Shown piece by piece: positions 23,282 through 63,447 of a stretch of DNA of 64,000 nt. The position numbers were made by a program, and so were the translations under genes. The stretch is from Anaerolineae bacterium (lineage in GTDB: Bacteria; Chloroflexota; Anaerolineae; B4-G1; DUEL01), in assembly GCA_034434635.1 (NCBI GenBank), contig DAOTYX010000184.1:3880-67879 (forward strand), given 5' to 3'. Every line of letters begins with the position of its first letter. The stretch's first letter is position 1. The notes beneath the pieces are model-generated. The model was given only the letters and a program-made list of their open reading frames with translations, was not told the origin of the DNA and ran no database searches.

Positions 23282-24586
23282 ATGAAGATCGGCGCACGTC
23301 TGGCAGTGACGATGACGGATCAGGGGGTGATCCGCAACCCCCTCATCGAGGTCGCCGGGGAGCGGATCGTCCGCGTTCAGGCAGAGGGTGCTGACGAGAA
23401 ACCCGACCTGTACGTGGATGGCATCATCATCCCCGGCCTGATCAGCAGCCATACCCATTTGCACGGCCTGGTGGCCTATGGCCACCCCGTGCCGGCGCCA
23501 GCGGGTTTCTGGCCCTTCCTCCGCGAGTACTGGTGGCCCTACGTCGAGGACGTGCTGCGTACAGATGACGTGGCCAGCCTGGCCGCCTACGCCGCGATCC
23601 TGCACCTGAAGAACGGCTACACCTGTTTCTGTGACGTGATGGAGGCCCCCTATGCCGAGCCGGGCTTCATGCTGGCCGAAGCGGAGGCGGTCGCCGCAAC
23701 CGGAGCGCGCGCGTTCGTCTCCAACGAGGCCACAGAACGGGCCGGCCCGGAGATCGCCCGCAAACTCTTGGCGGAGAACGAGCGCATTCTCTCCCTCGAC
23801 GGCCTGGTGCGCGGGGTGATGAGCGTGCACACCACCTTCTCCTGTAGCGGCCCCTACATCCAGCAGGCCAAGGAGATCGCCCGTCGCCACGGAGCGATCT
23901 TCCACCTGCACGTCTCCGAGGGGACCTACCACGTCGAGGATACCCTGCAGCGCTTCGGCCAGCGGCCCGTCCCCTATTTGCGCGATCTGGGCGTGCTGGA
24001 TGAGTACACCCTGGCCTCACAGTGTGTCCACCTGACCGATGAGGAGATCGCCATCATGGCGGAGACGGGGACGCGCATCAGCCACAACCCGGTGTCGAAC
24101 ATGGAGATCGGCACCGGCGCAGCCCCGCTGGCCAGGATGCTCAGGGCTGGCGCCGAGGTCAGCCTGGGGGATGATGGCTTCATCCGCGCCTTCGACCCCT
24201 TCGTCAACTTCAGCACCACCCTCCTGCTCCACTCGCTGATCAGTCCTGGCGAGGTTTCCGCTGCCGAAGTCTTCGCCCTGCACACGACCAGCGCAGCGCG
24301 GGCGCTTCACCTGGATGCGGGCCGGCTGGCCCCCGGCGCCCTGGCCGACCTGGTGATCCTGCGCGACCACTCTCCCTCCCCGCTGCTGCCGGAGAACGTC
24401 ATCTACCACCTGGTCGTCGGCGCGCTGAGCAGTGATGTGAGCCACGTGATGGTGAACGGACGCATGGTGGTGGCTGACGGCCGTGTGACCACAGCGGACG
24501 AGGAACAGGCGCGCGCCCGCGCTGCCGCCACGATCTCCCGTCTGTGGGAGGGGGCACGCCGCGGCCGGGCAGGAGGAGGAGTCTGA
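23282..24586 (+). CDS. Amidohydrolase-superfamily enzyme (second; deaminase / chlorohydrolase-like)
   Basis: IIPGLISSHTHLHG HxH motif, HLHVSE, and the C-terminal Asp. Confidence 0.85.
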   Translation: MKIGARLAVTMTDQGVIRNPLIEVAGERIVRVQAEGADEKPDLYVDGIIIPGLISSHTHLHGLVAYGHPVPAPAGFWPFLREYWWPYVEDVLRTDDVASLAAYAAILHLKNGYTCFCDVMEAPYAEPGFMLAEAEAVAATGARAFVSNEATERAGPEIARKLLAENERILSLDGLVRGVMSVHTTFSCSGPYIQQAKEIARRHGAIFHLHVSEGTYHVEDTLQRFGQRPVPYLRDLGVLDEYTLASQCVHLTDEEIAIMAETGTRISHNPVSNMEIGTGAAPLARMLRAGAEVSLGDDGFIRAFDPFVNFSTTLLLHSLISPGEVSAAEVFALHTTSAARALHLDAGRLAPGALADLVILRDHSPSPLLPENVIYHLVVGALSSDVSHVMVNGRMVVADGRVTTADEEQARARAAATISRLWEGARRGRAGGGV

Positions 24587-27500
24587 TGTGGCGCTCATAC
24601 CATCTGGCGACCTCGGTTGAGGATGCGCTGCAGGCTCTGCAACGGGAGCAGGGCCAGGCGCGGCTCGTCGCCGGCGGCACCGATCTGGTGTTGCAGGTGC
24701 GCGAGGGCAAGTTCACCCCTCAGTGTTTGGTGGACACCACGCGCATCCCCGAACTTGAGGAGATCGCTATCGAAGGGGATCGCATCCTGGTGGGGGCCAA
24801 CGTCACCTTCCATCGCCTGTGGACCTCGCCGCAGGTCAATGCAGCCGGCTTTGTGCTGGCCGAGGCGGCTCGCCACGTCGCCGCCTGGGCCATCCAGAAC
24901 GTGGGCACGCTGGCCGGCAACGTCGTCAGCGCGCAGCCGGCCGGCGATGGTAGCATCGCCCTGGTGGCCCTGGGAGCCGAGGCGGAGATTACCCGCCTCG
25001 ACGGCCGTCGCTGGGTGGCGGTCTCCAGCCTCTACGCCGGCCCTGGCCGCTCCCGCCTCGACCCGACGCGGGAGATGATCACCCGCTTCCGCTGGCGGCT
25101 CCCCGCGCCGCACCAGGCCTCAGCCTATGAGCGCATTGCCCGCCGCGAGGTGATGTCGCTTCCCATCGCCTGCTGCGGCGTGGACCTGGAACTCACGCCC
25201 GACCTGGAGCACATCGCCTGGGTGCGCATCGCCCTGGGGCCGGTGGCCGACACCCCCTTCCGCGCCACCTGCGCCGAGGACGCCCTGCGCGGCGCCCGCT
25301 GCGAGGAGGTGGACTACGCTTACGCTGCCGAACAGGCCGCCTTTGCCTGTACCCTGCGCAGCAGCCGTCTGCGCGCCAGCCGCGAGTACCGCGAGGAAGT
25401 GGTGGAGGTACTGGTGCGACGGGCGCTGCGGCGGGCGGTCGAAGCGGCGCGCAGCGGCGAGCCCCGCAGCGTGGCTGGCCGCTTCACCTGGGAGCGGCGC
25501 TGGGCGAATGGCGTGGCCAGTCCCCCGGAGGGTGGTCGCATCACCTTCACGCTCAACGGTCAGCCCTGTACTGTGAGGGTGGACCCGGCAAGGACGCTGG
25601 CCCAGGTGCTGCGCGAGGACCTGGGGTTGACCGGCACGAAGATCGGCTGCGACGAAGGGGACTGTGGCGCCTGTATGGTCCTCCTCGATGGCCAGCCCGT
25701 GACCTCGTGCATCCTCCCGGCCTTCAAGGTGCACGGACGACAGGTGCGGACCATCGAGGGAGTATCCGACGGAGAGCAACTGCATCCCATTCAGCAGGCT
25801 TTCCTCTACCACGACGCCATCCAGTGCGGCTACTGCACGCCGGGGATGGTGATGGCTGCCAATGCCCTGCTGGCCGACCTGCCCGACCCGACGCCGGAGG
25901 AGATCAAGATCGCTCTGGGGAGCAACTACTGCCGCTGCACCGGTTATGTGAAGATCGTGGACGCAGTACAGGATGCGGCTGCGGTCCTTCGCGGAGCCAG
26001 GCAGGAGATCACCCGTCGCGCCGCGCCGCGCAAGGGGGCCCTGGCCCGCGTGACCGGGCGTGAGGTCTACGCTGGAGACATGCGCCTGGACGGGATGCTT
26101 TATGGCCGTCTGGTCTGGAGCCAGCACCCCCACGCGGAGATTCTGAGCATAGATACGCGCGCGGCGGAGGAGACACCAGGGGTGGTGCGGGTGATTACCC
26201 ACCGCGACGTGCCTGGCACCAACGCCTTCGGCTCCTGGGGCTACGACCAACCAGCCCTGGCCGAGGGCAAGGTGCTCTACGTGGGTGAGGTGGTCGCTGC
26301 GGTCTTTGCCGAAACGCCGGAGGCGGCGGAGGCGGGCGCCGCGCGGGTGCGCGTCGAGTACCGTCCGTTGCCGGGGGTCTTCACCCCACAGGACGCGCTG
26401 CGGCCCGACGCCCCCGTCCTCAAGGGCGACGACAACATCTTCTACCGCTCGCGGGTGGAGAAGGGAGATGTGGAGGCAGGCTTCGCCCAGGCGGACGTGA
26501 TCATCGAGGATGACTACACCACCCCGGCCATCGAGCATGCCTTCCTGGAGACCGAGGCGGGGGTAGGGGTGATGGAGGGTGACGTCGTCACCATCTACCA
26601 GGCCACCCAGTGGCCGCCCGGTGACCGGCAACAGATCGCCGACATCCTCGGCCTGCCGCTGGAGCGGGTGCGCATCGTCCAGACGCCGGTAGGTGGGGCG
26701 TTCGGCGGCAAGATGGACCTGACCACTCAGCCGGTGCTGGCCCTGGGTACCTTCCTGACCGGTCGCCCGGTCAAGGTGGTGCTCTCGCGCCCAGAGTCCA
26801 TCCGCATGCACCAGAAACGCCACCCCTTCTGGTTACACTACAAGGTGGGGGCCACCCGCGATGGCCGTATCGTGGCCTTCGAGGGGCAATTGCTGCTCGA
26901 CGGCGGGGCCTACCGCTCCACGACCGATGACGTGCTCGAACAGGCAACGGTCTTCTCCTCCGGCCCTTACGCCATCCCCAACGTGCGCGTCACCGGCATG
27001 GCCGTGCGCACCAACAACGCCCCTTGTGGAGCCATGCGCGGCTTCGGCGCCAACCAGGTCTGCTTTGCGATGGAGTCCACCATTGACCAGCTGGCGCGGC
27101 GGCTGAACATGGACCCCTTTCAGATCCGCCGCATCAACATGTACGATGTGGGGTCGGAACTGGTCACTGGCCAGATCCTGCGGCACAGTGTGGGGGCGAA
27201 ACCCACACTGGATGCTGCGGAGGCGGCGTTGCGCCGCGAGCGGCTGCCTGCGCCACGCCCGGGCCGACGCATCGGGGTAGGGGTGGCCTCGGGGATGAAG
27301 AACGTGGGCCTGGGCATCGGCGGCGACGACAGCGTGCACGTGGCGATGTGCCTGCAACCGGACGGCAGGCTGCTCCTCCGAGAGGGAGCCATTGACCTGG
27401 GCCAGGGAGCCAACACGGTGATGGCCCGTATCGCTGCCAGCGCTGTAGGGGTGGAGGACGGGTTGGTGGCCGTCATCGCGGGCGATACGCGCGAGGGGGA

Positions 27501-28287
27501 GGACGGCGGCATTACCGCCGCCTCACGTCAGACCTTCGTCACGGGCCGCGCCTGCGCCGAGGTGGCGCAGCAGTTCCGCGCGCGCCTGCTGGAGGTCGCC
27601 GCCCGGACCTATCAGGTGGACCCGCGGCGGTTGACGTTGACGCCAGAAGGACGGTTTGTCGATCTGGAACAGGAAACGCCCGTGGCCACGCTGGAGGACC
27701 TGGCCCGCGTCCTTCACGAGCGTGGCGAAGACCTGGCCGTGACCTATCACCATCAACCCCCCCGCACCTATCGCATCCTTACCCCTGCCCAGCGGCAGGA
27801 GGCAGGCATCACCGAGGAGGACTACATCAACTATCCGGCGCTGTGCTACATGTGCCACGTCGTCATCGTGGAAGTGGACGAGGAGACGGGTCACGTGGAG
27901 GTGCTCAAGGTCATCGCCGCGCATGACGTGGGCCGGGCGATCATCCCCACAGCGGTCGAGGGCCAGATCGAGGGGGCTGTGGTGATGGGCCTGGGCTACG
28001 CGCTGACGGAGGAGTTCGTCCAGGAAGAGGGGCGCATCCTTTCCGACTCGCTGCACAAGATCGCGCTGCCGCGCAGCACGCTGCCAGTGCAGATCGTGCC
28101 GCTGATCGTGGAGGACCCCGACCCGGGCGGTCCTTTCGGCGCCAAGGGGTTGGCCGAAGCCGGCGCAGTCGCCACAGCGCCGGCGGTGACCAACGCCATC
28201 TTCGACGCGGTGGGGGTGCGCATCCGCAACCTGCCAGCGACGAAAGAGAAGGTGTTGTTGGGGATGCGGGGTGTGGAGACGCGGTGA
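24586..28287 (+). CDS. Single-polypeptide xanthine-dehydrogenase-family molybdenum hydroxylase: FAD (CoxM-like) + [2Fe-2S] (CoxS-like) + MoCo (CoxL-like) domains fused
   Basis: Continuous 1233-codon ORF. N-terminal FAD_binding_5 segment (GGTDLV), two 2Fe-2S motifs (CDEGDCGACMV, CGYCTPG...CRCTGY), then an aldehyde-oxidase/XDH Mo domain of about 750 aa. ATG overlaps the upstream stop (TGATG). Confidence 0.85.
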   Translation: MWRSYHLATSVEDALQALQREQGQARLVAGGTDLVLQVREGKFTPQCLVDTTRIPELEEIAIEGDRILVGANVTFHRLWTSPQVNAAGFVLAEAARHVAAWAIQNVGTLAGNVVSAQPAGDGSIALVALGAEAEITRLDGRRWVAVSSLYAGPGRSRLDPTREMITRFRWRLPAPHQASAYERIARREVMSLPIACCGVDLELTPDLEHIAWVRIALGPVADTPFRATCAEDALRGARCEEVDYAYAAEQAAFACTLRSSRLRASREYREEVVEVLVRRALRRAVEAARSGEPRSVAGRFTWERRWANGVASPPEGGRITFTLNGQPCTVRVDPARTLAQVLREDLGLTGTKIGCDEGDCGACMVLLDGQPVTSCILPAFKVHGRQVRTIEGVSDGEQLHPIQQAFLYHDAIQCGYCTPGMVMAANALLADLPDPTPEEIKIALGSNYCRCTGYVKIVDAVQDAAAVLRGARQEITRRAAPRKGALARVTGREVYAGDMRLDGMLYGRLVWSQHPHAEILSIDTRAAEETPGVVRVITHRDVPGTNAFGSWGYDQPALAEGKVLYVGEVVAAVFAETPEAAEAGAARVRVEYRPLPGVFTPQDALRPDAPVLKGDDNIFYRSRVEKGDVEAGFAQADVIIEDDYTTPAIEHAFLETEAGVGVMEGDVVTIYQATQWPPGDRQQIADILGLPLERVRIVQTPVGGAFGGKMDLTTQPVLALGTFLTGRPVKVVLSRPESIRMHQKRHPFWLHYKVGATRDGRIVAFEGQLLLDGGAYRSTTDDVLEQATVFSSGPYAIPNVRVTGMAVRTNNAPCGAMRGFGANQVCFAMESTIDQLARRLNMDPFQIRRINMYDVGSELVTGQILRHSVGAKPTLDAAEAALRRERLPAPRPGRRIGVGVASGMKNVGLGIGGDDSVHVAMCLQPDGRLLLREGAIDLGQGANTVMARIAASAVGVEDGLVAVIAGDTREGEDGGITAASRQTFVTGRACAEVAQQFRARLLEVAARTYQVDPRRLTLTPEGRFVDLEQETPVATLEDLARVLHERGEDLAVTYHHQPPRTYRILTPAQRQEAGITEEDYINYPALCYMCHVVIVEVDEETGHVEVLKVIAAHDVGRAIIPTAVEGQIEGAVVMGLGYALTEEFVQEEGRILSDSLHKIALPRSTLPVQIVPLIVEDPDPGGPFGAKGLAEAGAVATAPAVTNAIFDAVGVRIRNLPATKEKVLLGMRGVETR

Positions 28288-43671: not shown

Positions 43672-44688
43672 CTACGGGTTGGACTCGGTGGGGCCTTCCC
43701 CTGCCTCTGCCGGCACCATTGACATGGCAATCCTGAGCATCTCTTCCTCCGGCAGGTTCGAGAGCATCTCGATCCGGATGTTGCCAGTATACCAGATGAG
43801 CTGCTTGCCATCTGTGTAGGAGACGGTCTCGGCAGACCCAACCCCCGGTTCCAAAGCCACCACCTGGTCCGGCCCGGACGGCGAGGCGACAGGAGCCGAG
43901 GGAGTTGGCGGGATGGAGACGAAAGAGACCTGCCCTTCCAGACCGGTGATCAACACCGCTGGCTGGCCGTTGACCGTCACGTTTGCGCCAGCAGGCAAGG
44001 ATCTGTCGTCATCAGGGGACGACAACCGCTCATCAATGATGAGAATCTGATGGGTGGCGCTGTTCCAGTAGTTCAGGCTTGCCGCTTCCGGATTCAATCC
44101 TACGGCCATCGCCTCAAAACCATCCGGCAGATAGGCCGGACGCAGCGGCGTGAACTCCACCGAACCTGGGATAGATGCTACCGAACTTGGGACGGACACC
44201 TCTTCCCCCCCCGCAGGGCTCTCAAAGCGGAACCACCTGAGGAGCTCTCCCACCTGCGCCCGCACCGACGGAACGAAACCCGCCGTCCCGAGGACGATGA
44301 GCAGGGCTGCGATAGCGACCAGAGCAAGCCTTTTCTTCATCATCACACCTCCGAGGATTTGATTGATGTGGCCAACACCTTTCGACAGGCTCAGGGTACC
44401 GCCTGGCGCCAGACGGTGAAGCCATGTCGGGAGCCATGATGGTGAGGGGCGCGCTTCCCTCGCCAGCCTCGCCCGCAGGCGGCTCCAGACCTGTGGCGAA
44501 GGGACTGCCTGGGCAGCCCTGACTTGAAGGGACCGGCTGATGCGGCTCTGCAGCGCCGATAGAGCAGCCAGTTCCCGCTGACAGGCATCACACCCGGCCA
44601 GGTGAGCCTGGATCAATGCACGCTCTGAAGGGGTCACCTCATGATCCAGATAGGCAACCAGCAACTTGTTCACTTCCTGACATGTCAT
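43672..44688 (-). CDS. Anti-sigma factor (N-terminal zf-HC2, TM segment, extracytoplasmic domain)
   Basis: MTCQEVNKLLVAYLDHEV...HLAGCDACQ zinc-finger motif, hydrophobic segment, Pro/Ser-rich C-terminus. Confidence 0.85.
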   Translation of the reverse strand: MTCQEVNKLLVAYLDHEVTPSERALIQAHLAGCDACQRELAALSALQSRISRSLQVRAAQAVPSPQVWSRLRARLAREARPSPSWLPTWLHRLAPGGTLSLSKGVGHINQILGGVMMKKRLALVAIAALLIVLGTAGFVPSVRAQVGELLRWFRFESPAGGEEVSVPSSVASIPGSVEFTPLRPAYLPDGFEAMAVGLNPEAASLNYWNSATHQILIIDERLSSPDDDRSLPAGANVTVNGQPAVLITGLEGQVSFVSIPPTPSAPVASPSGPDQVVALEPGVGSAETVSYTDGKQLIWYTGNIRIEMLSNLPEEEMLRIAMSMVPAEAGEGPTESNP

Positions 44689-45254
44689 TTCGCCACCTCT
44701 CTTTGGGACACAGCGCGCAGGACTGGGGCATCTTCTGTCAGCGTTCCCAGTTCTTTGTGCAGGGTCTTGAGAGCCAGATCGAGCCGTGATTTGACCGTAC
44801 CCACAGGGATATTCAGGATTTGCGCGATGTCAGCGTATGAGAGTTCCAGGTAGTAGCGCAGGATCACGACCGCGCGCAGTTTGTCGCTCAACCGCCTCAG
44901 TGCCTGCTGGATCACCTCCTCATCCTCCAGTCGGTTCTGGAAGAAGGATGGTCGGTCTGGCGACATGGGCGGAACTTTGTCCAGCGAGATGAAGGGAAGA
45001 CGGCGCTTTCGCCGCCAACTGACGCAACGGTTCACCGTAATGCGATACAGCCATGTCGTGAAGGAGCCTTTTGACGGTTCAAAAGTGGAGAGAAACCTGT
45101 GTACCTGGAGGAAGACCTCCTGGAGCACATCCTCGGCTTCCTCAGCGCTGCCCAGCATCAGGTAGGCGGTCTTGTAGACCAGGTTTTTGTACTGATGGAA
45201 GAGAGTGGCGAAAGCCTCTTCATCCCCTGTCTGGCAGCGGCGTATCAGGTCCAC
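44685..45254 (-). CDS. ECF-subfamily RNA polymerase sigma-70 factor
   Basis: Sigma region 2 (LVYKTAYLMLGSAEEAEDVLQEVFLQV) and region 4 (LSYADIAQILNIPVGTVKSRL). Stop overlaps the anti-sigma start (ATGA). Confidence 0.9.
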   Translation of the reverse strand: MDLIRRCQTGDEEAFATLFHQYKNLVYKTAYLMLGSAEEAEDVLQEVFLQVHRFLSTFEPSKGSFTTWLYRITVNRCVSWRRKRRLPFISLDKVPPMSPDRPSFFQNRLEDEEVIQQALRRLSDKLRAVVILRYYLELSYADIAQILNIPVGTVKSRLDLALKTLHKELGTLTEDAPVLRAVSQREVAK

Positions 45255-45297
45255 GCTCTTGTCTCCTTGAGGTCGCGGTTCTGCTAAATTATACGCC

Positions 45298-45328
45298 GTT
45301 TTCGAATCGGAAGTTCGGAAACATACGC
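45298..45328 (-). promoter_or_regulatory. ECF-type autoregulatory promoter candidate (minus strand: CCGAACTT -17- CGTATAAT)
   Basis: GAAC...CGT spacing matches ECF -35/-10 architecture; 44-nt leader with AAGGAG RBS. Confidence 0.5.
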
Positions 45329-45490
45329 AGGTCGTAACCGCTCAGGCTGGCCGTTGAAACCGCGCCCGCTCTCTGCCTCCGAACGTTCGTAGGGCGGGAC
45401 CCTACGTGTCAAGTCAAATGATAATGTCACTGTGGCGTCCGTACTCTTTTCGTAGGACTTGCGCAGTTGGCGGATAAACCTTTGAAATTC

Positions 45491-45568
45491 GCCACGAATT
45501 TCACGAATGGACACGAATTTCGCCTCTCTCCATCCGTGAAATTCGCGCAATTCGTGGCAATAAAGATC
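45491..45568. promoter_or_regulatory. Compound repeat/operator-like element: three tandem CACGAAT(T/G) decamers plus nested inverted repeats (GCCACGAATT...AATTCGTGGC; CGAATTTCACG...CGTGAAATTCG)
   Basis: Read directly from 45488-45570; lies about 240 bp upstream of the sigma gene. Confidence 0.45.
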
Positions 45569-45654
45569 AACTGCGTAACTTCTATCGTTAAGGTTAGGGG
45601 CCTGGCGCGACTCAAAGTCGGCCCCACGTCGGAATGAACGACAGCCAGATGCTT

Positions 45655-45695
45655 GCCGTGTCAAGGGCACAGAGCGAAGCGTCCCTTGACACGGC
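45655..45695. other. 13-bp-arm inverted repeat (GCCGTGTCAAGGG...CCCTTGACACGGC)
   Basis: Direct observation; function unknown. Confidence 0.4.
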
Positions 45696-46035
45696 CAAGC
45701 ACCTGGCTAAAGTGAAAGAGGCGTTGGGCCGCCGGTGAGCAGGTCGGGCCTTGTTGTGACCGGCTACCGTTTGAGTTCGGTACGCTCGAAAGCCAATTGC
45801 AGTTCATCGTCTCCTTTCGGCCGATTGTGGGCCAAGGTTAAGCGAACGTCCTCGGTGTGGTCAGAGGAGATGCCAGGGAGGAGGAAGACCTGCTCGATGG
45901 CGTCGTAGATTTCTTGGCGCAGGCGGCGCGGGTTGGTGGCATCACGTTAGTGAATACGTGGCATGGCTGAACAGTCCGGATGTGCTATAATTGGAACCTG
46001 CGGAAGGGGAGGGTGAGAGGGGGGCTGAGGAGGCT

Positions 46036-59043: not shown

Positions 59044-59094
59044 TTTGGGCGACACGCCGCCACTGGTATGTGCAGTGGCGGCTTTTTGTCGCCC
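59044..59094 (+). terminator. Terminator/attenuator-like structure in the yeeE-like leader: GCCGCCACTG-gtatgtg-CAGTGGCGGC followed by TTTTT, enclosed by GGGCGACA/TGTCGCCC
   Basis: Lies about 60 nt upstream of the start codon. The outer 8-bp arms could give an alternative longer helix. Confidence 0.45.
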
Positions 59095-59156
59095 AATGCG
59101 TGTCCCTGTTGAGGCGGAGGACACGTTTGGAGACCATATTTCCAGGAGGTGGACCT

Positions 59157-60281
59157 ATGTCCGAAAAACTGACCCGCTTCTTTGCCTCGCGCTGGGGCAT
59201 CATCGTGGCTGGGGCCGTCATCGGCATCCTGGCCCCGCTGCTCCAGAGGCTGGGCAACCCGCCCAACATGGGCATCTGCGTGGCCTGCTTCGAGCGGGAC
59301 ATCGCCGGCGCCCTGGGGCTGCACCGGGCGGACGTCGTCCAGTATCTCCGGCCGGAGATCATCGGCTTCGTGCTGGGCGCGACGGTCGCGGCGCTCTTGT
59401 TCCGCGAGTTCAAGGCCCGCGCCGGCTCCGCCCCCATCGTCCGCTTCGTGCTCGGCGTTTTCGCCATGATCGGCGCCCTGGCCTTCCTGGGCTGCCCCTG
59501 GCGGGCGCTGCTGCGCTTCTCGGCGGGCGACCTGAACGCCCTGGTCGGCCTGCTCGGTCTGACCTTCGGCATCTTCATCGGCGTGCTCTTCCTCAAAGCC
59601 GGCTACAGCCTGGGCCGCTCCTACAAGACCCACACTGCGGTTGGCTGGATCATGCCGGCCATCATGGTGGTGTTGCTTCTCCTGCTCGTCTTCCGCGTCA
59701 AGGTGAGCGACACCGGCGCCCTCTTCTTCAGCACGAGCGGTCCCGGCTCCATGCACGCGCCGCTGATCATCTCGTTGGTCGTCGGGCTGGTGATCGGCTT
59801 CCTGGCCCAGCGGACGCGCTTCTGCACCATGGGCTCGATCCGCGACGTGATCCTGATGGGCGACACGCACCTGATCAGTGGTGTGGGCGCGCTGTTCGTG
59901 TTCGCCGTCCTCACCAACTTGATCCTGGGGCAGTTCCGCACCCCTGCCTTCTTCGGCCAGCCGATCGCCCACAGCCAGCACCTGTGGAACTTCCTGGGAA
60001 TGACCCTGGCCGGGTTGGCCTTTGCCCTGGCCGGCGGTTGCCCGGGACGGCAGCTCTTCCTGGCTGGCGAGGGGGACGGCGATGCCGCCGTCTTCGTGCT
60101 GGGGATGATCACCGGCGCGGGGATTTCTCATAACTTCGCCCTGGCGGGCCGGCCCGACAGCGTGGTGGAAGGCGTGCAGACGGTCGGCGGCATCACCCCC
60201 TACGGGATGGCTGCGGTCGTCCTGGGGTTGGTGGTCTGCATCGTCATCGGCCTGACGATGCGCCAGAAGATGGAGGGATAA
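59157..60281 (+). CDS. YedE/YeeE-family membrane protein (sulfur/selenium-compound transporter family)
   Basis: 374 aa, about 9 TM, two internal repeats each with the conserved Cys (GICVACF...; FCTMGSIRD) typical of YeeE/YedE. ATG 59157 after CAGGAGGTGG. The track ORF 58826..60133 is in the wrong frame. Confidence 0.8.
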   Translation: MSEKLTRFFASRWGIIVAGAVIGILAPLLQRLGNPPNMGICVACFERDIAGALGLHRADVVQYLRPEIIGFVLGATVAALLFREFKARAGSAPIVRFVLGVFAMIGALAFLGCPWRALLRFSAGDLNALVGLLGLTFGIFIGVLFLKAGYSLGRSYKTHTAVGWIMPAIMVVLLLLLVFRVKVSDTGALFFSTSGPGSMHAPLIISLVVGLVIGFLAQRTRFCTMGSIRDVILMGDTHLISGVGALFVFAVLTNLILGQFRTPAFFGQPIAHSQHLWNFLGMTLAGLAFALAGGCPGRQLFLAGEGDGDAAVFVLGMITGAGISHNFALAGRPDSVVEGVQTVGGITPYGMAAVVLGLVVCIVIGLTMRQKMEG

Positions 60282-60285
60282 TGCC

Positions 60286-60495
60286 ATGGCTCAGACAGTA
60301 GATGCGCGCGGGCTTTCGTGCCCCCAACCGGTCATCCTGACACGCCAGGCCATTCAGACCGGGCAGTTCCCTATCGAGGTGCTGGTGGACACCGTGACCT
60401 CGCGGGAGAACGTCCGGCGTCTGGCGAAGAGCCTGGGCTACAAAGTGCAGGTGAAGGAGGAGGGGGGCGAGTTCAGGCTGACGCTGACGAAATGA
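60286..60495 (+). CDS. TusA/SirA/YedF-like sulfur(selenium)-carrier protein
   Basis: 69 aa; LDARGLSCPQPV (CPxP) motif. Confidence 0.85.
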   Translation: MAQTVDARGLSCPQPVILTRQAIQTGQFPIEVLVDTVTSRENVRRLAKSLGYKVQVKEEGGEFRLTLTK

Positions 60496-60509
60496 GCAAC
60501 TAGACCCTG

Positions 60510-60553
60510 TACCCTCCCGCAGGCTAGAGAGCACCCAAACCTGCGGGAGGGTA
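60510..60553. promoter_or_regulatory. Conserved hairpin motif copy B (TACCCTCCCGCAGG -16 nt- CCTGCGGGAGGGTA, perfect 14-bp arms)
   Basis: Intergenic between the TusA-like and desulfurase genes. Confidence 0.6.
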
Positions 60554-60581
60554 CAAAGGTCATTTTCTTCAGGAGAGTTGA

Positions 60582-61736
60582 ATGATCTACTTCGACAACG
60601 CAGCCACCTCCTGGCCCAAGCCGCCGGGAGTGGCTGAGGCGATGGTGCGTTTCCTGGAGGCCGTCGGGGCCAACCCCGGCCGTGCTGCCCACCGTCTGGC
60701 CGTGGAATCTGGGCGGATCCTCTACGACGCCCGCGAGGCAGTGGCGGACCTTTTCCACGCCCCCGACCCGCTGCGCGTGGTCTTCACCAAGAACGTGACC
60801 GAGGCGCTGAACCTGGCTCTGCGGGGCCTGCTGCGTCCAGGCGACCACGTGGTCACCAGTTCGATGGAGCACAACTCGGTGATGCGTCCCCTGCGCGCCT
60901 TGGAGCGCGACGGCGTCCAGGTGACGGTGGTGACCTGCTCGCCGCAGGGGGTGTTGGCTCCCGCTGACGTGGCAGCAGCCATCCGGCCCGCCACCCGTCT
61001 GGTTGTGCTCAACCATGCCTCTAACGTGGTGGGCACGCTGCTGCCGGTGGCTGAGGTGGGCGCGATCTGTCGCCAGCGCGGCGTGCTGCTGCTGGTGGAC
61101 GCTGCCCAGACCGCTGGCGCCTACCCTATTGACGTAGAGGCCGCACGAGTTGACCTGCTCGCCTTCACCGGCCACAAGTCTATGGGCGGCCCGATGGGCA
61201 CGGGAGGGTTGATCATAGGAGAGCGGGTGGAGGAGAGACAACTGGAGCCGCTGGTGCGCGGCGGCACGGGCAGCCGTTCGGAGTACGAAGTGCAGCCGGA
61301 TTTCCTGCCCGACATGTGCGAGAGCGGCACCCCGAACGTGGTAGGGTTGGCCGGATTGGAGGCAGGGGTACGCTGGGTTTTGGAACAGGGCGTGGAGACG
61401 ATCCGTGCCCATGAGGTGACGCTGGCCCGTGCGTTGATCGAGGGGTTGCTGGTCATTCCCGGTGTGACCGTCTATGGCACGCTGGATGCCGAACGGCAGA
61501 CGGCGACCGTCTCGTTCAACATCATCGGGATGGAGCCTTCGGAGGTGGGCCTGCGCCTGGACGACGAGCACGAGATCATGTGCCGGGTGGGGTTGCACTG
61601 CGCGCCGGCGGCTCACAGGACTATGGACACGTTCCCCGACGGCACGGTACGCTTCGGCCTGGGCGCTTTCAACACGATGGCCGAGGTGGAGGCCGCGCTG
61701 GCCGCCGTAGAGGCACTGGCCAGGGAGGTCCGATGA
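60582..61736 (+). CDS. Class-V aminotransferase: cysteine desulfurase / selenocysteine-lyase-like
   Basis: IYFDNAATS, HKSMGGPMGTGGL (PLP-Lys in HK), ...CESGTPN... Cys loop. Confidence 0.85.
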   Translation: MIYFDNAATSWPKPPGVAEAMVRFLEAVGANPGRAAHRLAVESGRILYDAREAVADLFHAPDPLRVVFTKNVTEALNLALRGLLRPGDHVVTSSMEHNSVMRPLRALERDGVQVTVVTCSPQGVLAPADVAAAIRPATRLVVLNHASNVVGTLLPVAEVGAICRQRGVLLLVDAAQTAGAYPIDVEAARVDLLAFTGHKSMGGPMGTGGLIIGERVEERQLEPLVRGGTGSRSEYEVQPDFLPDMCESGTPNVVGLAGLEAGVRWVLEQGVETIRAHEVTLARALIEGLLVIPGVTVYGTLDAERQTATVSFNIIGMEPSEVGLRLDDEHEIMCRVGLHCAPAAHRTMDTFPDGTVRFGLGAFNTMAEVEAALAAVEALAREVR

Positions 61737-61960
61737 CCACCGGCCAGTACACGGTCATTCTTCTACACTCCACCAGCCACGCCATCCACGCCGAGAGGCT
61801 GCTCAACAGGGCGGGCATCCCGTCGAAGATGATCCCCGTCCCGCGCCATATCAGTTCGAGTTGTGGTGTCTGCATCCGTGTTGGTCGGCCCGACCGGGAG
61901 GCGGCCCAGCGGGTGCTGCAGGTGGCGGGCGTGGAGATCGAGGGAACTCACGACATCTAG
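61733..61960 (+). CDS. DUF3343-family small protein (putative Se/S-carrier-like)
   Basis: 75 aa; ILLHSTSHAIHAERLL...PVPRHISSSCGVCIRV conserved pattern. ATG overlaps the upstream stop (ATGA). Confidence 0.7.
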   Translation: MTTGQYTVILLHSTSHAIHAERLLNRAGIPSKMIPVPRHISSSCGVCIRVGRPDREAAQRVLQVAGVEIEGTHDI

Positions 61961-62090
61961 AAGCCGTAACGGCCTGCGATGTCTGCGATCCACGCCGGCA
62001 GGGGAGAAGGGAACAGGTGGATGGGGGCTGGCGGCCGGCCGCCGGGCGGAGTGGGACGCCGGTCTGGCCAGCCTGATGGAGAAACGCCAG

Positions 62091-62164
62091 CGCCCCCGGT
62101 GGGACTCGAACCCACAACCACCGGATTAGAAGTCCGATGCGCTGTCCACTTGCGCCACGGGGGC
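62091..62164 (-). tRNA. tRNA-Arg(TCT): tRNA-Arg (anticodon TCT)
   Basis: 74 nt cloverleaf: acceptor GCCCCCG/CGGGGGC, D-stem GCGC, anticodon stem TCGGA/TCCGG with loop CTTCTAA, T-arm GTGGG-TTCGAGT-CCCAC, discriminator G. CCA is not encoded. Confidence 0.85.
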
Positions 62165-62174
62165 AGGTGACCCT

Positions 62175-62202
62175 ATTGTAACCCGCCCTGACCGGCTGTC
62201 AA
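62175..62202 (-). promoter_or_regulatory. Consensus sigma70 promoter for the tRNA (minus strand TTGACA-16-TACAAT, 10 nt before tRNA 5' end)
   Basis: Reverse complement of 62175-62202 read directly. Confidence 0.65.
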
Positions 62203-62221: not shown

Positions 62222-63289
62222 TCAAGGCAGATGGTCCAGTATCTGCTGCGTTGAGGGGCGGTCGTCCGCCGCCCGGCCCACATACGACCACGCGATCCGC
62301 CCGTCCCGGCCAATGACGAATACCGCCGGCGCGGCGTAGCCATCCTCCAGCAGATTGTAGACGCCGTAAGCCTCGGCAACCCGATGGTCGGCATCGGCCA
62401 GCATCGGGAAGGGGGCCTGCACAGCGCTCATGGCCCCCGCCACCGCCTCCCGCGAGGCGACCGCTACCGCCACCACCTCCGCCCCACGCGCCTGAAACTC
62501 CGGGTAGGCCTGGCGCAGCTCGACGAGCTGCGTGCGGTCAGGCCCTCAAGAGCACCTCTGGAAAAAGACCACCACCACCGGCCCCCGCGCCAGGCTCGTG
62601 GAGAGGGTGAAAGTGCCCGTATCCGCGCGCGCCAGAGCGAAGTCGGGCGCGGGAGGGGGGAGAGGGGTGGGTGTGGGAGGGGGTGAGGGCGGGGGCGACG
62701 GCACAACGGCCGCAGTGGGCAGACCGCTCGCGGCAAGCCCTTCTTGATTCACCTGGATCTCGGCCCGTTCCCGCGCCTGCGCCAGCCAGTCGTCCACCGC
62801 GACGCCCTGCGCCTGTAGCGCCTGCTGCGCCCGCTGCACCATCAGCAACCGGCCGATCGTCCGCTCCAACGCCGCCCGCTCCAACCCCGCGTCCCTCAGC
62901 GCGGCGACCAGTTCCTCGTCCCCGATCCCCAACGAGGCCTCGAGGTTGCCCAGGTAGGCCTCGACCTCTCCCGCCGTGGGGGTTGCCTGGGGCAACTCCT
63001 GGAGCAGCAGCACCCCGTTGATCAACCGCTCCAGGCTTTCTTCGGCCGTGGGCTCCGGCACGCCAGCCAGGCGGCTCATCACCCCATCTACACCCGCTGC
63101 CTCCAGCCAGAGGGCGCGGCTGATCGGTTGCCCGTTGACGATAGCCACCACCGTCTCCGTTGTCACAGGGATGGCTGTCGGCGGCTGGCTTTCGTGGCTC
63201 AACAGCAGGATAACCACCACCAGCAGCACGAGGGCCACCCCTCCCGCCGCCGCCATCGCCGCCCAGCGGCTGGTAGACCTTTGTTCCAT
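62222..63289 (-). CDS. Candidate selenoprotein: membrane-anchored SurA-N-like + Pro-rich linker + peroxiredoxin/redoxin-fold domain, with single in-frame TGA (62546-62548) in the active-site segment
   Basis: Track ORFs 62546..63289 and 62222..62476 are in the same frame and separated only by one TGA. The readthrough gives a collinear Bcp-like Prx domain. A stable hairpin follows 13 nt downstream. Confidence 0.5.
62514..62532 (-). promoter_or_regulatory. SECIS-like hairpin (mRNA CGCAGCUCG-U-CGAGCUGCG) starting 14 nt 3' of the in-frame UGA, apical G/U about 22-24 nt from UGA
   Basis: Read from the reverse complement; geometry fits bacterial SECIS spacing. Confidence 0.4.
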
Positions 63290-63308
63290 AACCCGCCTCC
63301 CAACTGCC

Positions 63309-63347: not shown

Positions 63348-63447
63348 AGTTGCCCGGCCTCCTCAAGTGGATGTAGACGATAGCACGACTTGGCCTGGAT
63401 GTCAACCGCCGGCCCGGCACCCTGCGCCTCTGCGGCAGACGGACACC

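Follow-up and report, generated by a model that had tools for sequence, protein, structure and literature searches.

The window described here is a stretch of 64,000 nucleotides from an Anaerolineae bacterium of the phylum Chloroflexota (GenBank assembly GCA_034434635.1, contig DAOTYX010000184.1, positions 3,880 to 67,879). On its minus strand, the region 63289..62222 is very probably one gene, encoding a selenoprotein of 355 residues; this is the best explanation of the data as a whole. An in-frame TGA at 62546..62548 would then be decoded as selenocysteine (Sec, or U in protein sequences), and not as a stop. The selenoprotein assignment itself is one we hold with high confidence.

A preliminary description of the window, made from the sequence alone, had pointed out two minus-strand open reading frames (ORFs) in the same frame, parted only by the TGA at 62546-62548. 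This layout is confirmed. The first ORF runs from an ATG at 63289 to the TGA at 62548..62546, where the context is ...VVVVFFQRCS*GPDRTQLVEL.... Past the TGA, the same frame goes on for 107 more codons, up to a TGA stop at 62224..62222, for a read-through product of 355 residues. The first coding part (62549..63289, minus strand, codons 1-247, ending on ...FFQRCS) encodes an anchor, a SurA-like domain, a Pro-rich linker and the first redoxin strands. The proposed selenocysteine codon is residue 248, in the motif C-S-U-G-P-D. The second coding part (62222..62545, minus strand) holds codons 249-355 plus the terminal TGA at 62222-62224, based on the read-through frame and on selection after the internal TGA.

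It had also been claimed that read-through completes a redoxin domain, and this is borne out. With U written as C, Pfam AhpC-TSA matches residues 213-334 (E 2e-26; 92.8 bits vs a cutoff of 26) and Pfam Redoxin matches residues 213-349 (E 5e-22). Both matches straddle codon 248, which means that the TGA cuts one domain in two.

A protein search returned some 27 orthologues at 40-73% identity, all ending at the same place (...VFFQRCG). DNA was examined for 8 of those orthologues, and for another 38 loci that a scan of species-representative genomes brought up. All 42 distinct homologues, the most divergent of them at about 33% identity, have TGA as the Sec codon, and the TGA is present in every locus holding the redoxin domain (46 loci, 41 distinct sequences). 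The genome loci (n=38) are all Chloroflexota metagenome-assembled genomes (MAGs), with metagenome contigs besides; the MAGs belong to Thermoflexales, Thermoflexus sp., Anaerolineae/Anaerolineales, Caldilineaceae and Caldilinea aerophila. After the TGA there are 106-110 conserved in-frame codons (133 in locus L013). No frameshifts or other stop codons were seen in the homologues, and the terminal stops of their genes vary (TGA 16, TAG 16, TAA 8).

These data bear on the simplest alternative: that the TGA is a true stop, caused by pseudogene formation, a sequencing error or a recent nonsense mutation, and that only a 247-residue fragment is made. Gene callers and NCBI do annotate the region in this way, as a 'hypothetical protein' and a separate 'redoxin domain-containing protein'. 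In addition, TGA is the commonest true stop in the window (TGA 24, TAG 12, TAA 6, over 42 genes), from which it also follows that the codon is not reassigned genome-wide. A decaying pseudogene would however gather frameshifts and other stops, and none are seen. A true stop also sits badly with the identical TGA in all 42 distinct homologues, with the Pfam domain that it splits, and with purifying selection that starts at the first codon after it, as described below. A read error is contradicted by the identical 247-aa N-terminal product, called on 13 contigs of separate ENA and JGI assemblies. A true stop is therefore hardly credible.

The codons directly after the TGA vary as coding sequence does. 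Pro at +2 appears in all four of its codons (CCT 7, CCC 7, CCG 14, CCA 3), Arg at +4 is coded by CGC, CGG, CGA and AGG, and Asp at +3 by GAC and GAT. The median pairwise ratio of nonsynonymous to synonymous change (dN/dS) is 0.30 for codons +1 to +21, vs 0.24 for the 36 codons upstream. From the sequence comparison, it is strongly supported that these codons are under purifying selection at the protein level, and that translation continues.

This leaves less room for a second alternative, in which there are two separate genes, with the redoxin fragment made from an internal start or by reinitiation. Many homologues do have an in-frame GTG 8 codons after the TGA, at the Val of QLVEL, and public gene calls disagree on where the second ORF begins (83-108 aa). 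But no downstream start codon is conserved, since this Val codon varies: it is GTC in the window, and GTT, GGC or GGT elsewhere. The seven codons before it (GPDRTQL) are conserved as protein, with synonymous variation. A fragment started there would not be a complete fold, since it would have no membrane anchor, no active-site loop and no strand beta-1. The GTG listed as the start of the window's second ORF (62476) is arbitrary, because coding runs on from the first codon past the TGA. Two genes are thus a highly improbable arrangement.

The preliminary description had further proposed a selenocysteine insertion sequence (SECIS) element, in the form of a perfect hairpin 13 nt downstream of the TGA with a single nucleotide at its apex. 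The palindrome, CGCAGCUCG-U-CGAGCUGCG, does begin 13 nt after the TGA. The apical loop of 1 nt, as the palindrome is written, is physically impossible; what folds is a stem of 8 bp with the loop GUC (62514..62532, minus strand). This upper stem-loop is conserved, and in the window it has a folding energy of -13.6 kcal/mol, a value matched by 1 out of 200 shuffles.

The published model of bacterial SECIS elements (PMC13188914, a 2026 review) has a loop of 3-9 nt on a stem of 4-16 bp, a G and then a G or U in the first loop positions, a distance of 16-37 nt from the UGA, and a minimum free energy (MFE) of -7.5 kcal/mol or lower. The hairpin falls within every one of these constraints (7-8 bp, GUC loop, 21 nt, -13.6 kcal/mol). 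Across the family the loop starts 21 nt after the UGA, and reads GUG, GUC, GUU, GGC or GGU, which is to say G[U/G]N.

Run on the 41 distinct sequences, RNAalifold gives a 7-bp stem with a 3-nt loop. The pair at the base of the stem is GC in 34 and CG in 7. A middle pair is AU in 37 and GC in 4, where Gln CAA changes to CAG together with Leu TTG to CTG, synonymous on both sides. The closing pair is CG in 25 and GC in 10, where a Leu change (CTC to CTG) makes up for Glu GAG becoming Gln CAG; it is unpaired in 6 sequences, where the loop is thereby wider. So 3 of the 7 conserved pairs show two-sided changes, and one-sided variation is found in none. The stem is paired in 92% of cells, vs 23-44% for slid registers, and the covariation score of 0.200 (0.055 in shuffles) was reached by 0 out of 500 shuffles. 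The hairpin is also kept in a low-GC homologue with a lipoprotein-type signal, L050. The proposed SECIS element thus fits the published constraints, and is conserved with compensatory changes in 41 distinct homologues.

From the window sequence only, a more extended structure can be folded, with a lower stem GGGCCUG/CAGGCCU directly after the UGA (62506..62545, minus strand; MFE -24.3 kcal/mol, z -2.2). This lower stem was not retained as part of the element: it is absent from the RNAalifold consensus, it is not conserved, and its relevance is uncertain. The GGG that opens it in the window is codon +1 (Gly), which is GGG in 33 out of 38 scored sequences. The base after the UGA is G in all 38. 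This bias may reflect a context requirement for recoding.

What the TGA codes for can be judged from related proteins. An exhaustive HMMER search gave 111 representatives of the wider family that cover the Sec site. At this site, 101 have Cys (100 of these in a CxxC motif), 5 have Ser, 1 has Thr and 4 have Trp; for part of the Trp group, the DNA probably reads TGA as well. Among solved structures, the residue opposite U is the leading Cys of the motif, CGPC in DsbE (3gl3) and CEPC in ResA. The comparison with Cys-containing homologues that had been suggested earlier is thus answered in favour of Sec at a Cys position.

The TGA had been placed in the motif region of the peroxidatic/resolving Cys pair of peroxiredoxin (Prx) and thioredoxin-fold proteins. 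The redox-Cys region is right, the peroxidatic position is not. In an alignment to the BCP structure 2cx3, Sec falls on the Ser/Thr of TxxC, the peroxidatic Cys (Cp) is opposite the Asp at +3, and there is no Pro at -7. The Prx signature PxxxT/SxxC(p) is absent from the window protein. Sec instead takes the place of the nucleophilic, N-terminal Cys of a thioredoxin-type CxxC, with an Asp at Cp. In the structure model of homologue P0149, the Sec-site residue sits directly before helix 69-80, the first long helix, which in the model is the classic nucleophile position of a thioredoxin fold. The redoxin domain is therefore best described as a peroxiredoxin-like fold with a thioredoxin-type active site, which is the known 'Prx-like' arrangement.

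The earlier remark that a Cys lies next to the TGA (C-S-U) also stands: in the C-S-U-G-P-D of the window, the sole Cys of the protein is two residues upstream of U. In each homologue a single Cys, no more and no fewer, lies at most three residues from Sec, and usually this is the only Cys of the protein. Its position differs by lineage. It is at -2 in the window and most Thermoflexales/Anaerolineae (C-(G/S)-U-G-P-D, where +3 is Asp), at +3 in the Caldilineaceae group and L050 (U-G-x-C), at -3 in L047 and L048 (C-x-x-U), and at +1 in L011 (U-C). Among the 38 scored sequences, the 31 with a Cys at -2 all have an Asp at +3, and the 7 with another residue at -2 all have a Cys at +3. From this linked pattern we infer that a Sec-Cys redox pair, forming a selenenylsulfide, may well be the working unit.

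Genes for Sec incorporation are documented for related organisms. BlastKOALA lists selA (K01042) and selB (K03833) for Thermoflexus hugenholtzii JAD2 (PMC8129789 Table S4), and SelB has been reported for Anaerolinea thermophila and for Anaerolineales single-cell genomes (PMC4959059). Two Thermoflexus sp. MAGs carry the gene family described here, intact in L014 and disrupted in L033. The suggested check for selA, selB, selD and tRNA-Sec is thus answered only at the level of the lineage, by selA and selB in related organisms; for the window and the flanks of the homologue loci it came out negative.

A third alternative accepts read-through, and holds that the UGA is read by a near-cognate tRNA as a standard amino acid (Trp, Cys or Gly), with the hairpin as a read-through stimulator. 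Stop-codon read-through stimulated by a downstream structure exists in other systems. The base after the TGA, which is always G, and the frequent GGG there could suit this idea too, as does the fact that Sec machinery is shown only for related organisms. Yet the site is the catalytic Cys of CxxC in 101 of the 111 relatives. A single point mutation would give Cys (TGC/TGT), and in no homologue of the TGA-bearing clade is there a Cys at this codon. Trp or Gly would destroy the redox site, yet its partner Cys is strictly conserved. In shape and in distance from the UGA, the hairpin agrees with the SelB-dependent bacterial SECIS model, and related organisms encode selA and selB. On balance, decoding as a standard amino acid is improbable.

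Some observations do weigh against the selenoprotein reading, or against the role given to it. An Rfam scan of the hairpin region (E up to 10) found no SECIS family, which carries little weight since bacterial SECIS elements are diverse. The conservation of the hairpin is partly protein-driven, because its stem also codes for QLV(E/Q)L, a conserved peptide; the synonymous covariation is the one part that owes nothing to protein selection. Searches for selA, selB, selD and tRNA-Sec came up empty in the 64-kb window and in the regions flanking the homologues (up to 10 kb on each side), so that support from the machinery is at the lineage level. The window protein carries UGPD, with Asp at +3, and so falls outside the UxxC/UxxU motif of the closest known selenoprotein family, which is discussed below. 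Finally, the proposed function is inferred from fold, motif and domain fusions, and no conserved neighbour or operon partner is found across the family, beyond a close clade.

The searches behind the missing Sec genes were as follows. Pfam and NCBIfam scans of the roughly 45 window genes revealed none of the sel genes, and ARAGORN and Rfam found only a tRNA-Arg in the window. Over about 670 kb of homologue loci, ARAGORN and tblastn (with approximate E. coli SelA/SelB/SelD queries) gave IF-2 in L047 as the sole match. ARAGORN also called a 'tRNA-???' in L034, which is no tRNA according to Rfam. Scans of the window and homologue loci for further genes with an in-frame TGA gave none that convince. 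Against this stands the fact that the TGA, the hairpin and the downstream frame are kept together in about 40 species, which is hard to explain without Sec decoding.

Structures were modelled for the N-terminal product and for homologue P0149. The N-terminal AlphaFold model (predicted local distance difference test, or pLDDT, 83.6 overall) shows one transmembrane helix followed by a helical domain. The anchor spans about residues 9-31 (63197..63265, minus strand), on the basis of a hydrophobic stretch and a modelled helix 7-31. It has Arg residues on its N-terminal side, and its topology is probably N-in/C-out. The helical domain, about residues 45-180 (62750..63157, minus strand), has a pLDDT above 95.

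That this domain resembles the SurA N-domain, as had been proposed, is confirmed for the fold, and not by Pfam at the sequence level. In a Foldseek search of the PDB, the best 16 matches are all SurA or SurA-like (PEB4/Cj1289, LIC12922), with probabilities of 0.96-1.0 and modest E-values of 2e-3 to 1e-1. The superposition on the SurA N-domain of 2pv3_A has a root mean square deviation of 3.6 A over 127 alignment columns, at a Foldseek probability of about 1. Pfam gave no match in residues 1-212 (E up to 0.1), the SurA_N families included. A Pro-rich linker of low pLDDT, recognised from its sequence, follows at about residues 190-214 (62648..62722, minus strand). Next is the AhpC/TSA-Redoxin domain with its Prx-like fold (residues 213-349, 62243..62653, minus strand), which holds the Sec codon, and which is known from Pfam and from sequence matches to the PDB. 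The P0149 model (pLDDT 88) is nearest to Bcp, AhpE and other peroxiredoxins; TM-scores normalised to the target are 0.83-0.86 for the best Bcp/AhpE structures, and 0.63-0.81 for other Prx.

Three architectures occur in the family. The first is that of the window protein: anchor, SurA-like domain, linker and Sec-redoxin domain. The second adds an internal TlpA-like thioredoxin domain, whose motif is WCPPC in the Caldilineaceae group; L007, L010 and L031 have it in the degenerate form CASWSEPC. The third has just an anchor or lipoprotein signal and the Sec-redoxin domain. In L007, L010 and L031, the internal TlpA-like domain lies some 150 residues before Sec. Its WCPPC is replaced by F-C-A-S-W-S-E-P-C, with a Ser instead of the first Cys of CxxC, and an extra Cys upstream.

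Two loci depart from these architectures. In Thermoflexus sp. 629H.11 (L033 1955-2476, JAGHYO010000102.1), the SurA-like part is kept and stops after the linker, with unrelated sequence in place of the redoxin domain, which suggests that this orthologue was disrupted or rearranged. L046 10001-10420 (JAFGNR010000253.1) has a homologue of the SurA-like domain alone, with no redoxin domain after it.

The function is less certain than the selenoprotein assignment. From its fold, motif and domain fusions, we give about an even chance to a thiol-disulfide oxidoreductase working outside the cytoplasm, with unfolded envelope proteins as its substrates. The decoding step is strongly supported: the ribosome arrives at the UGA of codon 248, and a stem-loop whose apical loop follows after 21 nt is shaped and placed like a bacterial SECIS. 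This would recruit SelB carrying Sec-tRNA(Sec), after which Sec is inserted and translation goes on. The anchor would hold the chaperone domain, the Pro-rich linker and the Prx-fold redoxin domain outside the cytoplasmic membrane. There, the selenolate might attack a disulfide of the substrate (a peroxide or a sulfenic acid is another possible target), and the Cys close by would resolve the adduct, giving an intramolecular selenenylsulfide. An external reductant would then reduce the Se-S bond; in some homologues this could be the fused TlpA-like WCPPC domain. By presenting unfolded envelope proteins to the redox site, the chaperone domain would make the whole a selenium-based oxidoreductase or foldase.

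The main functional alternative is that this is a genuine selenoprotein, and at the same time an extracytoplasmic peroxidase of the GPx/Prx kind (glutathione peroxidase or peroxiredoxin), whose Sec is oxidised to a selenenic acid and then resolved by the Cys. AhpC-TSA is the best Pfam family, the structures nearest to the P0149 model are Bcp, AhpE and typical Prx, and the fused TlpA-like domain may be likened to Trx-Prx fusions. Glutathione peroxidases moreover carry Sec at the same fold position, in a UxxT motif (PMC13188914). But the Prx signature is missing: in the 2cx3 alignment Sec is at the Thr/Ser of TxxC, and Asp is at Cp. The best match among solved structures is DsbE (3gl3), with the next ones split between ResA and Bcp/AhpE at similar E-values. 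The SurA-like fusion points to polypeptide substrates, and one homologue is directly upstream of ResB and CcsA. A peroxidase is consequently possible, if rather unlikely.

Selenoproteins with this kind of fold are not new. The known bacterial family of Prx-like thiol:disulfide oxidoreductases has PF00578 and the motif UxxC/UxxU (Zhang & Gladyshev, PMC1794560; PMC13188914). Also catalogued are a cd02970 peroxiredoxin-like UxxS family, a UGC protein of the TlpA family, and several CxU families (PMC1794560; PMC13188914), besides the glutathione peroxidases mentioned above. The gene described here shares with the Prx-like family its Pfam domain, a Sec first in a thioredoxin-type CxxC, and a SECIS directly downstream inside the coding region. 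The Caldilineaceae homologues carry exactly U-G-x-C, and fit this known family. The window protein does not have its motif: like most Thermoflexales/Anaerolineae it has U-G-P-D, with the partner Cys at -2 (elsewhere also -3 or +1). A further difference is that the homologues here are all membrane-anchored, or of lipoprotein type (L050), and that most of them also carry a SurA-like domain, and some a TlpA-like one, as a fusion. Text searches of the 2026 review (PMC13188914) gave nothing that matches the architecture of the window protein; BSepDB is outside this comparison.

The best NCBIfam match is the SelL-related family, SelL_rel_redox NF040769 (E 2.8e-16), which is similar in its Prx-like fold and in a CxxC-type motif that hosts Sec. 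At 59.7 bits vs a cutoff of 120, the window protein is however not a member, and it attains the cutoff of no other NCBIfam model either. SelL itself carries UxxU. Scores also stay under the cutoff for WAxxUGC_long NF041054 (30 vs 300) and for PrxU NF040737 (26.6 bits vs 270).

ResA, TlpA and DsbE (CcmG) likewise have an N-terminal anchor and an outward-facing thioredoxin-fold domain. ResA and DsbE are among the best solved-structure sequence matches (3gl3 1.8e-9; ResA about 3e-8), with U at their nucleophilic Cys. The homologue upstream of resB and ccsA provides a link to cytochrome c at that locus only. Unlike in these proteins, Sec replaces Cys, Asp stands at the second motif Cys, and the fold is nearer to Bcp/AhpE. 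Peroxiredoxins (BCP/PrxQ, AhpE) and PrxU have the same fold and Pfam family, but the protein here lacks their PxxxTxxC signature, and has its Sec three residues ahead of Cp. With the chaperones SurA and PrsA, the likeness is that the N-terminal helical domain superposes on the SurA N-domain; PrsA is moreover tethered to the outer face of the membrane, as is proposed here. In contrast to these chaperones, there is no parvulin prolyl isomerase domain, its place being taken by the Sec-redoxin domain, and there is no Pfam sequence match.

A bolder proposal, which we put forward tentatively and think somewhat more likely wrong than right, is that this is a class of Chloroflexota envelope enzymes that always uses Sec. 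It would consist of a tethered PrsA/SurA-like chaperone in which a module with one Sec and one Cys stands instead of the prolyl isomerase, working as a selenium-based disulfide reductase or isomerase (or as a sulfenic-acid or peroxide reductase) on unfolded secreted proteins. If true, the moving partner Cys (from UxxC to CxU, CxxU and UC, with Asp in the old place) would mark a natural redesign of an active site. A thioredoxin active site would then have been rebuilt about a selenenylsulfide ring of short range, which calls to mind the GCUG motif at the C-terminus of thioredoxin reductase.

More broadly, the family would be a widespread, outward-facing Chloroflexota selenoprotein, found in Thermoflexales, Anaerolineae and Caldilineaceae, with only the Sec form in its clade. 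This implies that these thermophilic and hot-spring lineages depend on selenium for a redox function of the envelope. The natural series, with the partner Cys at four positions relative to Sec, can inform on the geometry of selenenylsulfides in thioredoxin-fold chemistry. All of this extends known biology and adds no new principle; the chief features are the SurA-like fusion, the apparent lack of Cys forms in the clade, and the mobile partner Cys.

There is also a practical consequence for databases. More than 170 database proteins match the redoxin domain (E up to 1e-8), and out of the best 120 matches, all but P0149 are C-terminal fragments of 83-126 aa, named 'redoxin domain-containing' or 'peroxiredoxin family' protein. 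These fragment entries are mis-called second halves of the selenoprotein gene. Together with dozens of 'hypothetical proteins' for the first halves, the more than 170 entries amount to a systematic error that can now be corrected. A few family proteins were translated with Trp at the Sec codon. The clearest case is P0149 (L050, 52-579), the more distant low-GC homologue with the lipoprotein-type signal: its database protein shows Trp where the DNA reads TGA, so this contig was evidently translated with a code in which TGA is Trp. P0152, P0155 and P0202 also have Trp at this position, probably for the same reason.

Upstream of the gene there is a Shine-Dalgarno-like GGAGG (63296..63300, minus strand), plain in the sequence itself, 6 nt ahead of the ATG. 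A promoter-like site (TTGACA, a 17 nt spacer, TATCGT, and a TG extension) is at 63377..63405 on the minus strand; it agrees with the consensus at 10 out of 12 positions, and is a consensus match only. Four promoter-like sites were found in the scanned region, vs 0.1 expected from shuffles.

Directly downstream of the gene, between it and a YedE cluster, is a tRNA-Arg(TCT) at 62090-62164 on the minus strand. It has its own sigma-70-type promoter match (TTGACA, a 16 nt spacer, TACAAT; 62175-62202, minus strand, 11 out of 12). The same tRNA-Arg follows the orthologue in L008 and L010.

The YedE cluster itself is a selenium-handling one (59070-61960, plus strand), and convergent with the selenoprotein gene. 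It comprises YedE (TIGR04112, 485 bits vs a cutoff of 200), a TusA/YedF-N-like protein of 69 aa, a cysteine desulfurase (TIGR01977, below the cutoff for the SclA selenocysteine lyase at 394 vs 525) and a Se_S_carrier protein (PF11823). The preliminary description had cited this neighbourhood in support of a selenoprotein. The cluster is real, and the operon link is not: the genes are convergent, a tRNA-Arg with its own promoter-like site lies between them, and the adjacency is seen only in the window species and probably in the 72%-identical sister contig L008. The adjacency is thus weak evidence. The cluster shows that the organism handles selenium, but its position does not tie it to the selenoprotein gene.

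Other neighbours occur at single loci and are not conserved in the family. In L009 (7157-8997), ResB and CcsA, of cytochrome c maturation system II, are directly downstream of the homologue. In L005 (11301-13480), YqeC and an NTP_transf_3/hydrolase gene are found downstream.

Elsewhere in the window, 24478-28284 (plus strand) encodes a fused molybdenum hydroxylase of the xanthine dehydrogenase family, 1269 aa long, with FAD, 2Fe-2S and molybdenum cofactor domains. This enzyme could be selenium-dependent, and be served by the YedE cluster. The surrounding region (about 13000-43500) has amidohydrolases, dihydropyrimidine-dehydrogenase-like genes, class-III aminotransferases, an aldehyde:ferredoxin oxidoreductase and a PnrA-type ABC transporter. 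At 44500-46000 the GC content drops to 0.55-0.58, vs 0.66 for the window, and two unannotated minus-strand ORFs go with this low-GC stretch, at 43672-44688 and 44685-45254.

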